Shown here: positions 15,560 to 18,794 of the stretch, piece after piece
Position numbering within the stretch: position 1 is the first letter of the stretch
Layout of the letters: the number at the start of each line of letters is the position of its first letter
Source of the DNA: Chlamydiota bacterium
GTDB lineage: Bacteria > Chlamydiota > Chlamydiia > Chlamydiales > SM23-39
Length of the DNA stretch: 22,808 nt
Direction of reading: 5' to 3'
Assembly (NCBI GenBank): GCA_038534095.1
Contig: JBCAXK010000025.1
Coordinates: forward strand, 1-22,808
Notes under the pieces: model-generated
What the model was told of the DNA's origin: nothing
The model's input: only the letters and a program-made list of their open reading frames with translations
Databases searched by the model: none
Made by a program: the position numbers and the translations under genes

Positions 15560-16423
15560 ATGGATCAAAAGAATAGCGCCACACCATTTTATGCCCGCTG
15601 CCTCCTCTTCACTCCTGGGAATAATCCCAAGCATTTTGAGGCTGCTAAAGAGCGGGGGGCTGATGGAGTGATCATTGATTTAGAAGATGCTATTTCTTTA
15701 TCAGAGAAAGAAAAGGCGAGAGCAACCGTTGTCGAGTATCTCCGCTCATTAACAGAAGATCCCTCTTTTATCCGATCGGTACGTATCAATTCTCTACGGA
15801 CCATTGAGGGGATAAGGGACCTGCTAGCTCTCGTAGAGTCGGGCGCTTTCCCCGACATGATTGTGTTACCCAAAACCGAAAGCCCAGAGGAGATTGTGAT
15901 TTTGCGTCAGCTTCTATTTCCAAAACAAGTGCCTTTGATTCCTGTGATTGAAACGGCTAAAGGGCTTTACCAAGCGCCTTTGATTGCTCAAGAGGACGGC
16001 GTCTCTGCTCTCCTTTTTGGGGGCGCCGATTTTTCTGCTGATCTTGGAGCGCAATTGACCTGGGAATCGATGCAAACGTTTCGCGCGGAGCTGAGCCAAG
16101 CTGCGGCGCAAGCGGGTATCGCCGCGATTGATGTACCTTACTTACACCTCCAAGATGCCGATGATGGGCCACTTATCTGTGAAACGGAAAAAGTCAAAGC
16201 GCTTGGATTTACCTGTAAAACCAGTATTCATCCAAAACATATTGCTCCGATTCTTTCTGTCTTAACTCCGCAAGAAGAGGAAATTCAGAAAGCAAAAAAA
16301 ATTGTAGATACCTTTGAAAAAGCAAAAGGCAATGCGTGTCAATTAGATGGTAAAATGATCGATATGCCCGTTTTTTTATCTGCAAAACGGATCTTACAAC
16401 TTGCAAAGAAAGCCTATGAATGA
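15560..16423 (+). CDS. ripC: CitE-family CoA-ester lyase, RipC/(S)-citramalyl-CoA lyase type
   Basis: RCLLFTPG, GADGVIIDLEDA, VRIN, PDMIVLPKTES, IETAKG, FGGADFSADLG, AIDVP, IHPKHI, DGKMID; no citD/citF nearby; followed by MaoC and CoA-transferase genes. Confidence 0.85.
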   Translation: MDQKNSATPFYARCLLFTPGNNPKHFEAAKERGADGVIIDLEDAISLSEKEKARATVVEYLRSLTEDPSFIRSVRINSLRTIEGIRDLLALVESGAFPDMIVLPKTESPEEIVILRQLLFPKQVPLIPVIETAKGLYQAPLIAQEDGVSALLFGGADFSADLGAQLTWESMQTFRAELSQAAAQAGIAAIDVPYLHLQDADDGPLICETEKVKALGFTCKTSIHPKHIAPILSVLTPQEEEIQKAKKIVDTFEKAKGNACQLDGKMIDMPVFLSAKRILQLAKKAYE

Positions 16424-17468
16424 TTTCCGTAGTTACCTAGAGCTGAGCAAAAATACCTACCAAGAACATTTTGGATTGGATTTTGAGCAATTTGCCATCG
16501 GCCAAGTATTCCACCATAGACCTGGCCTAACTATATCCCAGCAGGATAATGCCGATGAAGCTCTTGATACCATCAACAACGCCCAGTTGCATTATGACGC
16601 TCATTACGCGTCAAAAACAGAATGGAAGTGTTGTCTCGGAGTGAGTACCCTTACGTTACAAAGAGTCCTTGGGATGGCCTCAAAAACTTTTGCTCGCAAA
16701 GAATCGATTATCCATTTTGAAGATATTGCGATGACCCGTCCCGTGTTTGGTGCCGATACTTTATACGCCCGCTCAACCATCACAGGTAAAGAAGATCATA
16801 ACGACCTGCTTGGAACCCTCTCTGTGAAAACAGAAGGGGTGAATCAAAAGGGGGAGGTTGTTGCGAGCATTGCGTATACGATGCGTATCTACAAATCAGG
16901 TCGGCACCCTTTTGAAGAAAAGCGTGGCTACAAGCGGAAAACCCTCCCCGAAAAATTTGCCTCACATAGAACGCTTGCAGATGGGAGTTTTATGGAAGAA
17001 ATTGGGCTATACTTTGAAGACCTTGAGCCAAATGAATCCTACGTCCATTTGCCGGGGAAAACGTTTAGCCGAGAGGAATGTCAGAAGCACGCGCTCCGTT
17101 CGATCGAGCTTTCCCCGCAGTACGCAAATACGCATTACGCAAAAGAATTTCATGAAGGGAAATTGCTTGTTCAGGAATCTTTTGTGTTATCGGTGCTAAC
17201 GGCCTTGTCTACAAGAACGTTTGATCGGGTAGTTGCTAATTTAGGTTGGAAAAACATCAAGATGCATTCGAAAATGTGGGAAGGCGAGACCCTCTATGCG
17301 CGCTCTAAGATCTTAGATAAACGGGAGTCGAAATCACGCCCTACACAAGGGATCATGCACGTGGAAACAGAAGGGAAAAATCAAGACGGTCAGCTTATTT
17401 GTACTTATGAGCGGTTCTTTTTGATTTATAAGAAGGGTTGCGGTCCCTACGAATCTGCTGGCTATTGA
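16416..17468 (+). CDS. ripB: Tandem MaoC (double hotdog) enoyl-CoA hydratase, RipB/itaconyl-CoA hydratase-like
   Basis: Two homologous halves (FGLDFEQFAIGQVFHHRPGLTI / IGLYFEDLEPNESYVHLPGKTF; PVFGADTLYARS / MWEGETLYARS; TEGVNQKGE / TEGKNQDGQ) plus RipB-type ANLGW and KRESKSRPTQGI. Start most likely the ATG at 16416, overlapping the ripC stop (ATGAATGA). Confidence 0.8.
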   Translation: MNDFRSYLELSKNTYQEHFGLDFEQFAIGQVFHHRPGLTISQQDNADEALDTINNAQLHYDAHYASKTEWKCCLGVSTLTLQRVLGMASKTFARKESIIHFEDIAMTRPVFGADTLYARSTITGKEDHNDLLGTLSVKTEGVNQKGEVVASIAYTMRIYKSGRHPFEEKRGYKRKTLPEKFASHRTLADGSFMEEIGLYFEDLEPNESYVHLPGKTFSREECQKHALRSIELSPQYANTHYAKEFHEGKLLVQESFVLSVLTALSTRTFDRVVANLGWKNIKMHSKMWEGETLYARSKILDKRESKSRPTQGIMHVETEGKNQDGQLICTYERFFLIYKKGCGPYESAGY

Positions 17469-17480
17469 CTAGAGGAAAAG

Positions 17481-18794
17481 ATGTTTGAAGAAGAGTACAA
17501 AAAGAAACAGTTGTCTGCCGCTGATGCGGCAAGTCTCATTCCGAAAAAGTGCAATATTGGCTTTGGGATGGCTATATCACAACCGCCCGCTCTTTTAGAA
17601 GCGATCGGTCAAAGAGCGCGCTCTCGAGAGTTCGAGGAGATCAAAGTCTACTATTTACACGCGGAAAAGCCTGCAAATGAGCATCTTTTGCAATACGATT
17701 TGATGGATGTGATCAAGCCTTGTCCAGGATTTCTTGGAGCAAAAGAGCGTGAACTTGCAAAACAAGGTAGTAAAGACGGGAGAAAGGTGATCTTTTATGT
17801 GCCCAATTCTTTTAGTCATATGCCTGGTTATTTTAGGAATCACATCCCATTAGATACATTTGTCACGACGGTTGCTCCTATGGATAAAGCGGGCTATTTT
17901 TCGATGGGAACAAATAATGATTACAGTTCTACAGCGGCAAGGCATTGTAAGCGGCTCATTGTTGAAGTCAATGAACATATGCCTCGAGTCTTTGGGGATT
18001 CAATGTTGCACATTTCAGAAATCGATGGCATTGTAGAAAATACCCAGCCCCTTATAGAAATCTCTCCTAGACCTGCAAAACCAGAAAATGAAAAGATTGG
18101 CCGGCTGATTGCTGATCTTGTTCCAGATAGGGCTACGATACAAATGGGAGTAGGAGGCGTTCCCGATGCGGTTTGTTCTTACATCAAAGATCGAAAAGAT
18201 TTGGGGATTCACTCTGAGCTCTTATCTCCCGGCATGTTCTCTCTCATCAAGTCGGGAGCCGTGACGGGCAGATACAAAAACATTAACCGTTTAAAAACAG
18301 TCTTTACCCTCGCTATGGGCACAAAAGAGATGTACGACTTTATGAACGATAACCCCATGATGGAAAGTTATTCTGTCGATTATGTCAATAATCCCAATGT
18401 GATTGCGCAAAATGATCATGTCATTTCGATCAATACGATTATTGAGATGGATCTATTTGGTCAGGTAAATGCTGAGCAGATTGGACACCGGGAATTTGGA
18501 GGACCGGGAGGACAAAACGACTTTGTTCGGGGAGCTTTTTTATCGAAACAGGGTAAAAGTATCCTCGCATTTGAATCGACTACAAAAAAGAATACGATCA
18601 CAAAGATTGTGCCCAAGTTAGACAGCATTGTGACTGATCTTCGGATTGATACCCAGTATGTTTGCACAGAGTATGGTCTTGTCAATCTCAAAGGTTTAAC
18701 TAGCACAGAGCGAGCTAAGAAGCTGATCGAATTAGCCCATCCAAATTTCCGAGATGAGCTCACAAAAGGGGCAAAAGACCTTTCCTTGCTTTAA
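17481..18794 (+). CDS. ripA: Family I CoA-transferase (acetyl-CoA hydrolase/4-hydroxybutyrate CoA-transferase family), RipA/itaconate CoA-transferase type
   Basis: Catalytic GIHSE, IVEVNEHMPRV, QMGVGGVP, GGQNDFVRGA, RIDTQYVCTEYG, NLKGLTSTERAKKLIELAHP; RipA-subfamily-like blocks DGRKVIFYVP and GYFSMGTNNDYSS; 437 aa; GAGG SD. Confidence 0.88.
   Translation: MFEEEYKKKQLSAADAASLIPKKCNIGFGMAISQPPALLEAIGQRARSREFEEIKVYYLHAEKPANEHLLQYDLMDVIKPCPGFLGAKERELAKQGSKDGRKVIFYVPNSFSHMPGYFRNHIPLDTFVTTVAPMDKAGYFSMGTNNDYSSTAARHCKRLIVEVNEHMPRVFGDSMLHISEIDGIVENTQPLIEISPRPAKPENEKIGRLIADLVPDRATIQMGVGGVPDAVCSYIKDRKDLGIHSELLSPGMFSLIKSGAVTGRYKNINRLKTVFTLAMGTKEMYDFMNDNPMMESYSVDYVNNPNVIAQNDHVISINTIIEMDLFGQVNAEQIGHREFGGPGGQNDFVRGAFLSKQGKSILAFESTTKKNTITKIVPKLDSIVTDLRIDTQYVCTEYGLVNLKGLTSTERAKKLIELAHPNFRDELTKGAKDLSLL

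Follow-up and report, generated by a model that had tools for sequence, protein, structure and literature searches.

Introduction

The ability to break down itaconate is known to help facultative pathogens survive in macrophages. In Yersinia pestis this breakdown is encoded by three genes, ripABC (Ict/Ich/Ccl), whose products are of the RipA, RipB and CitE types (Sasikaran et al., 2014, as reported in PMC12290011, PMC7397319 and PMC11789021). The PA0878–PA0883 cluster of Pseudomonas aeruginosa, for itaconate and methylsuccinate, follows the same overall pathway from itaconate to pyruvate and acetyl-coenzyme A (acetyl-CoA), but it is convergent, with a family III, succinyl-CoA-dependent transferase and additional mcd and MmgE/PrpD genes (PMC12290011). 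The list of bacteria with three-gene rip homologues in PMC7397319 includes no chlamydia, PMC13076539 names itaconate and chlamydiae without linking them, and our search of the literature outside subscription journals found nothing linking itaconate degradation to Chlamydiota. In this work we describe an operon of the ripABC kind at positions 15560–18794 of the window, by which we mean the whole stretch of DNA analysed, contig C25 (22,808 bp) of a 1.62-Mb chlamydial genome in 87 contigs (G000; completeness 96.6%, estimated contamination 0.32%).

The DNA of the window is present in two samples from two studies, both marine: run X1, a possible source sample, and run X2, a plastisphere metagenome from the other study; no RNA dataset is among the listed holders. 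The advance is modest, the pathway being textbook knowledge and the homologues already labelled by automatic pipelines; what we consider worth following is that the hydratase is fused and that other intracellular lineages share the operon.

Results and Discussion

An intact three-gene set of the Rip type

The operon is made of three adjacent, co-directional genes in the order C-B-A, with no internal stop, no frameshift and no accessory catabolic gene:

15560–16423, plus strand: RipC/Ccl-like CitE-family acyl-CoA lyase, predicted (S)-citramalyl-CoA lyase, 287 amino acids (aa), ATG start
16416–17468, plus strand: fused double hot-dog RipB/Ich-like enoyl-CoA hydratase, predicted itaconyl-CoA hydratase, 350 aa
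17481–18794, plus strand: RipA-like family I CoA-transferase, predicted itaconate CoA-transferase, 437 aa, ATG start

The hydratase open reading frame (ORF) is listed from a TTG codon (16401–17468, 355 aa), and the in-frame ATG at 16416, which gives 350 aa, is backed by the N-termini of 19 aligned homologues. With this start, the lyase stop and the hydratase start overlap by 8 nt (ATGAATGA); 12 nt, containing a GAGGA-like stretch, lie between the hydratase stop and the transferase ATG. Pfam places the first gene in HpcH_HpaI/C-C_Bond_Lyase (119.8 bits for HpcH_HpaI), the second in MaoC/MC_hydratase and the third in AcetylCoA_hydro/AcetylCoA_hyd_C. Chance matches are of no concern, because all family matches have E <= 1e-10. 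A scan of positions 12700–19000 gave three promoter-like and four terminator-like signals against 8.8 and 7.6 expected by shuffling, so none stands above chance.

The genes, their coupling and the Rip-type family placement of the set are thus real and intact, in agreement with the initial annotation, which had described a CitE lyase, a MaoC hydratase and a CoA-transferase in the order C-B-A with coupled junctions, and had seen in them a complete three-gene module of the Y. pestis type. The best NCBIfam families and the best solved chains bear out the latter claim, and in the comparison with malyl-CoA lyase, mesaconyl-CoA hydratase and 4-hydroxybutyrate CoA-transferase the Rip families or chains score higher for all three proteins. 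The strong resemblance to the Yersinia and Salmonella Rip proteins seen at that stage stands only in part: Rip proteins are the best families and chains, but the nearest relatives are environmental and Legionellales-type operons (51–70% identity), the NCBIfam cut-offs are missed (241 vs 375 and 277 vs 340 bits) and the hydratase is a fused double domain.

We propose, with a probability of about 0.65, that the three genes form one operon for the CoA-dependent degradation of itaconate, or of a C5-dicarboxylate much like it, with a role in carbon supply or in sparing targets other than the classic ones. In this pathway the RipA-like family I CoA-transferase would make itaconyl-CoA, probably with acetyl-CoA as the donor, the double hot-dog hydratase would turn itaconyl-CoA into (S)-citramalyl-CoA, and the CitE-type lyase, acting last, would release pyruvate and acetyl-CoA. 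Acetyl-CoA is the likely donor because the genome yielded no convincing succinyl-CoA synthetase (SucC reached only 59 bits against a cut-off of 375.6; this and the other genome-wide negatives below are bounded by the 96.6% completeness and by the use of a single family per search), and because it is also described for Y. pestis RipA, which can use acetyl-CoA, itself a product of the pathway, as its source of CoA (PMC12290011). Such a donor would suit a cell without succinyl-CoA synthetase. For use of the products, a pyruvate-dehydrogenase-type E1, citrate synthase and the catabolic-type acetolactate synthase (AlsS) encoded next to the operon would be at hand: the genome carries two 2-oxoacid dehydrogenase E1 (E1_dh) genes and one citrate-synthase-family gene.

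The transferase and the lyase

The transferase matches the Y. pestis RipA chains 3qli and 4n8j at 467.6–468.3 bits over residues 6–436, and the next solved family, the 4-hydroxybutyrate CoA-transferases, at 239–316 bits (3eh7, 315.9). 3QLI is Y. pestis RipA (PMC3180442). There is no Rip-specific transferase model in NCBIfam, in which the best model is that of butyryl-CoA:acetate CoA-transferase (TIGR03948, 331.1 bits, under its cut-off of 674.8). Residue E246 aligns with the catalytic Glu249 of RipA and G223-V224-G225 with its G-V227-G loop, and both the catalytic Glu and the G-[VI]-G loop are invariant in the 28 RipA-like proteins aligned. Met31, Phe85, Phe113, Val227 and Glu249, that is five of the seven RipA residues named in PMC3180442, are kept in the window transferase. 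Against the Y. pestis RipA chain the window protein scores 468 bits, another chlamydial RipA 432 and a Vibrio-type clade 321; taken as a proxy for a tree, these values put the window transferase in the major clade nearest Y. pestis RipA. None of the 16 window ORFs scanned against Pfam and NCBIfam is a family III (CaiB-type) transferase, an acyl-CoA dehydrogenase or an MmgE/PrpD protein, so that the distinguishing components of the P. aeruginosa cluster are absent from the window.

The best NCBIfam family of the lyase is RipC_Ccl (241.3 bits), ahead of citE (151.7 bits) and of malyl-CoA lyase (40.9 bits, against an equivalog cut-off of 500). Its best solved chain is 3qll (173.9 bits), which we take to be RipC itself, followed by human CLYBL (115.6 bits). 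The blocks VRIN, PKTES and FGGADFSADLG of the lyase line up with the equivalent blocks of 3qll, described as a Y. pestis CitE protein (PMC6232273). Each window protein thus has its best solved and/or NCBIfam match in the Y. pestis set.

The hydratase is a tandem fusion

RipB_Ich is the best NCBIfam family of the hydratase, with 277.1 bits summed over two stretches; the model of 2-methylfumaryl-CoA (mesaconyl-CoA) hydratase reaches 63.1 bits, against an equivalog cut-off of 560. The RipB model has 175 positions and the window hydratase 350 residues, which fall into two halves:

about 16416–16940, plus strand: N half of the hydratase
about 16941–17465, plus strand: C half of the hydratase

In alignment with five single-domain RipB-like proteins (alignment A2), the N half retains their motif HRPG.T....DN.....L.T.N....LH.D..YA, and the C half lacks these residues and retains VANLGW and KRESKSRP.QGI, both gone from the N half. 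A residual internal repeat is still visible in the DNA (16824–16862 and 17361–17399, offset 537 nt). In homologues from Microbulbifer, Legionella impletisoli and three other genomes each half matches the whole RipB model, the weaker half at 120–136 bits and the stronger at 138–171 bits. The hydratase therefore consists of two RipB-like hot-dog domains fused in tandem, whose decay is complementary, and each chain appears to hold one complete active site, made from both halves.

The AlphaFold (AF2) model of the protein (mean predicted local distance difference test score, pLDDT, 86.2; predicted template-modelling score, pTM, 0.81) has two hot-dog repeats. Its first Foldseek matches are double hot-dog mesaconyl-CoA hydratases (Mch/MeaC; 4e3e and 8hgn), which are also the top PDB sequence matches and share with it the two-domain MaoC architecture and the length, but they differ from it by sequence (only 45–47 bits, 19% identity). 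The full-length structural matches have a TM-score of only 0.38–0.40 with a root-mean-square deviation of about 24 A, which leaves the packing of the two domains unconfirmed; single hot-dog chains fit each half with TMt values of 0.73–0.82.

The double form is widespread. Among 2,677 candidates, 765 proteins match at E <= 0.001, many of them named 'itaconyl-CoA hydratase' by JGI, and the best match from another organism (P0002) has 76% identity. RipB-like matches occur in 57 of the 81 genomes of one sampled order, none of them over the RipB_Ich cut-off. A metagenome scan with the hydratase confirmed one of 47 stretches, by a weak match of 40% over 58 residues. The operon thus points to a widespread fused form of the predicted itaconyl-CoA hydratase.

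How firmly itaconate can be assigned as the substrate

Several observations weigh against our assignment. The lyase and the hydratase fall below the equivalog cut-offs of RipC_Ccl (241.3 vs 375 bits) and RipB_Ich (277.1 vs 340 bits), and the hydratase also departs from the single-domain form of about 175 aa found in Y. pestis, its build being unlike that of every characterised Ich. In the transferase, two of the seven RipA pocket or active-site residues are changed, Phe60 to Leu and Glu61 to His. The substrate is assigned by homology alone: we found no literature on an assayed enzyme from the clade of operons with a double hydratase to which the window belongs, and the trees presented below comprise no characterised protein, as sequences from Yersinia, Salmonella and Pseudomonas are not among their rows. 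An uptake system was not identified, DASS transporters, the one family tested, not being found in the genome, and the genome-wide negatives on which part of the argument relies are not proof of absence. Finally, synteny with relatives stops at about 12.8 kb, upstream of the operon, and no Logan contig bridging 12624–12795 with 31 letters on both sides was found in X1 or X2, a point that we treat with the residence of the operon.

With respect to the scores, the RipC_Ccl cut-off is narrow, since none of 401 sampled genomes of an Enterobacterales-order sample passes it (RipC-like matches were present in five). With respect to the transferase pocket, the position of Glu61 is occupied by His or Arg in 28 of 28 RipA-like proteins.

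The scores under the RipB and RipC cut-offs and the differences from Y. pestis RipA at Phe60 and Glu61 in the acyl pocket would also be expected if the same chemistry served a different substrate, such as mesaconate via mesaconyl-C4-CoA, citramalate or another related acid, with itaconate at most a side substrate. In KEGG the Yersinia-type Ich is also entered as a mesaconyl-C4-CoA hydratase. The structural neighbours of the hydratase, 4e3e and 8hgn, point the same way, and the pseudomonad cluster handles methylsuccinate too (PMC12290011). Nevertheless we hold this alternative to be improbable. RipB_Ich exceeds the mesaconyl-CoA hydratase model by 277 to 63 bits, the transferase is much nearer to the itaconate-specific RipA of Y. 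pestis (468 bits) than to any other solved transferase, and the acyl-CoA dehydrogenase, MmgE/PrpD protein and family III transferase that methylsuccinate would require are missing from the window.

Two further ideas were set aside. That the genes are an acyl-donor cassette for a surface sugar was rejected, as a RipA transferase is present and sugar or acyltransferase genes are not. The reverse, biosynthetic direction, in which itaconate would be made, we judge unlikely without a driving thioesterase, from what is described in PMC11367265.

Related operons and their trees

A hydratase relative is encoded in 132 stretches of named genomes, 80 of which were kept. The order C-B-A is found in 18 of the 80 loci and C-A-B in five; in 14 the lyase stands beside the hydratase without a transferase, and the remaining loci have other layouts or the hydratase alone. 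The 11 closest loci (L038–L041 and L043–L049) are all C-B-A, with 51–63% identity for C, 52–65% for B and 51–70% for A. They come from Microbulbifer epialgicus, Legionella impletisoli and metagenome-assembled genomes (MAGs) titled Legionellaceae, Coxiellaceae, Rickettsia, Verrucomicrobia and Gammaproteobacteria, record titles that can err: one MAG filed as Enterobacteriaceae was placed in an order of just 81 genomes.

Quick IQ-TREE runs, with support from the SH-like approximate likelihood ratio test (SH-aLRT) only, were made for the transferase (28 rows, at least 380 residues aligned), the lyase (51 rows, at least 240 residues aligned) and the hydratase (25 rows, restricted to loci L038–L069 with full-length ORFs under 420 aa). 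The window is sister to M. epialgicus in the A, C and B trees (SH-aLRT 99, 98 and 99), and the pair is nested in all three in a clade with Legionellaceae, Verrucomicrobia and Gammaproteobacteria MAGs. By gene order, fused hydratase, identity in all three proteins and congruent trees, the window operon truly belongs to a family of C-B(double)-A operons known from Microbulbifer, Legionellaceae, Coxiellaceae and Verrucomicrobia (L038–L049), from which it differs in that their hosts are of other phyla.

In M. epialgicus (L038) the operon has a lower GC content (0.442) than the locus around it (0.487). It may thus be foreign there too, and the direction of transfer therefore cannot be read from the sister relationship.

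In three of the 80 loci, all of betaproteobacterial type, lyase and double hydratase form a single fused ORF of 655–656 aa (L063:5001–6971, L068:5086–7053 and L073:1584–3554); this natural fusion ties the two activities together. In five loci of alphaproteobacterial type (L071, L075, L077, L082 and L084) a thiamine-diphosphate enzyme with 25–26% identity to AlsS comes directly after the double hydratase, which neither a lyase nor a transferase adjoins, and in L052 and L065 such an enzyme comes after a complete C-B-A set. The pairing of the double hydratase with a thiamine-diphosphate enzyme hints at another pathway that uses this hydratase family.

The operon sits in a chlamydial chromosome

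The left part of the window carries ribF, truB, rbfA, infB, nusA, rpsA and a gene for a 625-aa protein, syntenic with relatives of the family at 47–84% identity, and the nearest named NusA proteins are from Chlamydiota MAGs. Beyond about 12.8 kb the operon is accompanied by the following features:

12812–12831 and 15505–15524, no strand: arms of a 20-nt inverted repeat, 95% complementary, both intergenic, which bracket the next two features
12858–13649, plus strand: ORF of 263 aa without a Pfam or NCBIfam family, with which the non-syntenic segment opens
13649–15319, plus strand: catabolic-type acetolactate synthase AlsS (NCBIfam NF006378, 734.5 bits, above the cut-off of 510)
18905–21328, minus strand: lineage-specific 807-aa gene, one of a tandem pair of paralogues, no Pfam or NCBIfam family
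21665–22786, minus strand: lineage-specific gene of at least 373 aa, tandem paralogue of the 807-aa gene, no Pfam or NCBIfam family

The end of synteny could mean that the segment from about 12.8 to 22.8 kb stems from another organism, for example a gammaproteobacterium, and was misjoined to a chlamydial fragment during assembly or binning. The Logan contigs of both runs break, unbridged, between about 12624 and 12795, and no gene beyond about 12.8 kb has an orthologue in 40 relatives. We find such an artefact highly improbable. Sequencing depth is equal on both sides of 12.8 kb in the two independent samples (21.2 vs 20.8 in X1; 7.9–9.1 vs 8.2–8.4 in X2), and the strain divergence is similar, about 0.8–1.8% on the left and 1.1–3.3% on the right. 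The strain in X2 is 95–99% alike and covers 3000–18651, the window beyond 18651 being uncovered. Overall GC content and codon usage also fit the genome: the GC content at third codon positions (GC3) of the operon genes is 0.40–0.46 for a genome value of 0.432 +/- 0.042, and the correlation r of their relative synonymous codon usage (RSCU) is 0.54–0.74 for a genome median of 0.62, whereas in related operons elsewhere the GC3 of the hydratase gene varies widely, from 0.16 to 0.59. In X1 a single Logan contig (12795–20921) joins alsS, the operon and most of the 807-aa gene, a gene with paralogues on two other contigs of the genome, one of them in a type III secretion cluster of chlamydial type. 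The contamination estimate is low as well. The operon therefore sits in the chlamydial chromosome, and the earlier assignment of the DNA to a probable Chlamydiota genome proves sound on the strength of synteny, of the NusA names and of the CdsD-type type III secretion cluster.

The hydratase is found in none of 40 relatives, of which one shares the genus, 23 the family and 16 the order of the window. Among 400 other Chlamydiota genomes a hydratase-like match occurs in four, namely three of 90 in family f7 and one of five in f15, and in none of 68 in the window's own family. All four lie in Rip-like clusters with a single-domain RipB-like hydratase (165–207 aa) and a RipC-like neighbour: L013 (G204:C6), L014 (G267:C1) and L012 (G375:C33) in f7, and L011 (G138:C4) in f15. 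Three also have a RipA-like gene, in the orders B-A-C, A-C-B and A-C-B; G138 has instead an acyl-CoA dehydrogenase, two family III CoA-transferases and two MmgE/PrpD genes, a Pseudomonas-like build. One of these clusters sits on a 655-kb contig. In G375 a Legionella_OMP gene and a VirK gene adjoin the cluster. Rip-like clusters are thus rare in Chlamydiota without being unique to the window. The other chlamydial clusters share with the window adjoining Rip-like genes, but they differ in their single-domain hydratases and gene orders, and in the RipA tree their three RipA proteins form a clade of their own, apart from the window. The separate clade and the different builds indicate that Rip-like clusters entered Chlamydiota several times, the window's type being found only here among the genomes searched.

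Horizontal acquisition of the operon, as the initial annotation had supposed, and its transfer as one block are well supported, because no copy is found in the 40 relatives, because only four of 400 genomes of the phylum have clusters, of another build, and because the shared gene order and three congruent trees agree; full compositional adaptation followed. As for traces of mobile elements, the window has no tRNA gene, and no integrase or transposase family is present among the 16 ORFs scanned.

What the operon may do for the bacterium

Classic itaconate targets were looked for in the genome. Isocitrate lyase was not found, nor was methylisocitrate lyase, as the sole protein of the phosphoenolpyruvate (PEP) mutase family is a true PEP mutase; a genome without isocitrate lyase is the condition that the initial annotation had named, under which the operon may protect other targets or supply carbon. 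Methylmalonyl-CoA mutase and SdhA/FrdA were not found either. The failure to find SdhA/FrdA, a convincing SucC, methylmalonyl-CoA mutase and a DASS carrier suggests a strongly truncated tricarboxylic acid (TCA) cycle. As the searches brought up neither isocitrate lyase nor methylisocitrate lyase, methylmalonyl-CoA mutase or SdhA, protection of the classic targets is unlikely. Rather than shielding a glyoxylate shunt, the operon more likely gains carbon from itaconate made by the host, or clears away itaconate or itaconyl-CoA so that other targets are spared. Aldolase and also inosine monophosphate (IMP) dehydrogenase are described as further itaconate targets in Mycobacterium tuberculosis (PMC11789021). 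In this respect too the system departs from that of Y. pestis, its bearer being an obligate intracellular marine chlamydia in which isocitrate lyase was not found.

An alternative in which carbon is incidental holds that the operon serves immune evasion purely, by destroying the itaconate of an IRG1-bearing animal host cell, as rip does for Yersinia and Salmonella inside macrophages. Rip-type clusters predominate in pathogens (PMC12290011), marine molluscs make substantial itaconate upon infection (PMC6459830), and IRG1 homologues are described in molluscs, amphioxus, lamprey and jawed vertebrates; the same preprint gives them as not reported in ecdysozoans, plants and most fungi (10.1101/2022.06.17.496652). 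Both samples that hold the DNA are marine, and several of the nearest operons are filed under the titles Legionellaceae, Coxiellaceae and Rickettsia. These titles are unreliable for MAGs, and the closest single relative is a free-living marine Microbulbifer. Moreover, many chlamydiae inhabit protists, and the targets that such a defence would classically protect, including methylmalonyl-CoA mutase, which is hit through itaconyl-CoA, are those not found in the genome. An itaconate-making animal host, as the initial annotation had inferred, is plausible for this chlamydia; evasion as the sole function we consider unlikely, and we retain itaconate breakdown for carbon or for sparing other targets as the preferred reading.

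An extension of the latter would see in the C-B(double)-A operon a niche set that circulates among unrelated bacteria living inside the cells of aquatic hosts, namely Legionellaceae, Coxiellaceae, bacteria like Rickettsia and this chlamydia, and that serves for feeding on itaconate, not only for surviving it. This is a speculation that we rate as unlikely. If it held, a chlamydia that is without all classic itaconate targets and still has a fully adapted operon in two marine samples would be the sign of a marine host whose intracellular compartment is flooded with itaconate, either a mollusc or fish with pIRG1/IRG1 or a protist with an unrecognised source, and the fused hydratase would represent a new, so far undescribed kind of itaconyl-CoA hydratase, each chain having a single active site. 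More generally, host-derived itaconate may be a nutrient or a stress factor well beyond mammalian macrophages, and the operon offers a concrete marker in the search for the host.

The true PEP mutase gene (C59:1441–2331, locus L136; 337 bits, above the cut-off) lies about 1.3 kb from the citrate-synthase-family gene (C59:4999–6078). This locus suggests that phosphonates are made by this chlamydia, and the 'citrate synthase' may be part of the phosphonate pathway and not of the TCA cycle.

Neighbouring genes

AlsS is encoded 240 nt upstream of the lyase gene on the same strand. Its start is uncertain, as the ORF opens with a GTG at 13562 and the family match begins near residue 30. No close AlsS orthologue is present in the 40 relatives, nine of which have only thiamine-diphosphate enzymes at 25–32% identity, and acetolactate decarboxylase was not found in the genome. 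AlsS is a possible sink for pyruvate made by the lyase, or may have been acquired separately.

The 263-aa ORF that precedes alsS is unmatched at the syntenic locus of G001, a genome of the same genus. The inverted repeat around these two genes might mark the ends of an inserted or invertible cassette. In the X2 strain the contig on the alsS side ends at 15494 and that on the lyase side begins at 15490, both running into unlike sequence; the 5-nt overlap at 15490–15494 would fit an insertion with target duplication.

In the left part of the window, the aspartate kinase gene at 10085–10897 encodes only 270 aa, with the kinase domain but not the C-terminal regulatory portion, and runs at its end into the start of the 625-aa gene; this aspartate kinase is present in the relative G009 and was not seen at the equivalent place in G001.

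Downstream of the operon, the tandem pair occupies 18905–22786, with direct repeats D1–D3. The family of the 807-aa gene has no match in the 40 relatives and at least four copies in the genome, the paralogues being 47% identical in the window, 60% on C33 (C33:16321–16986) and 30% on C19 (C19:7732–10287). The C19 copy lies between the gene for the type III secretion secretin and the SctQ, SctO, SctN and CdsD genes, the CdsD protein having chlamydial CdsD Pfam domains, and the family may therefore consist of secretion-linked proteins.

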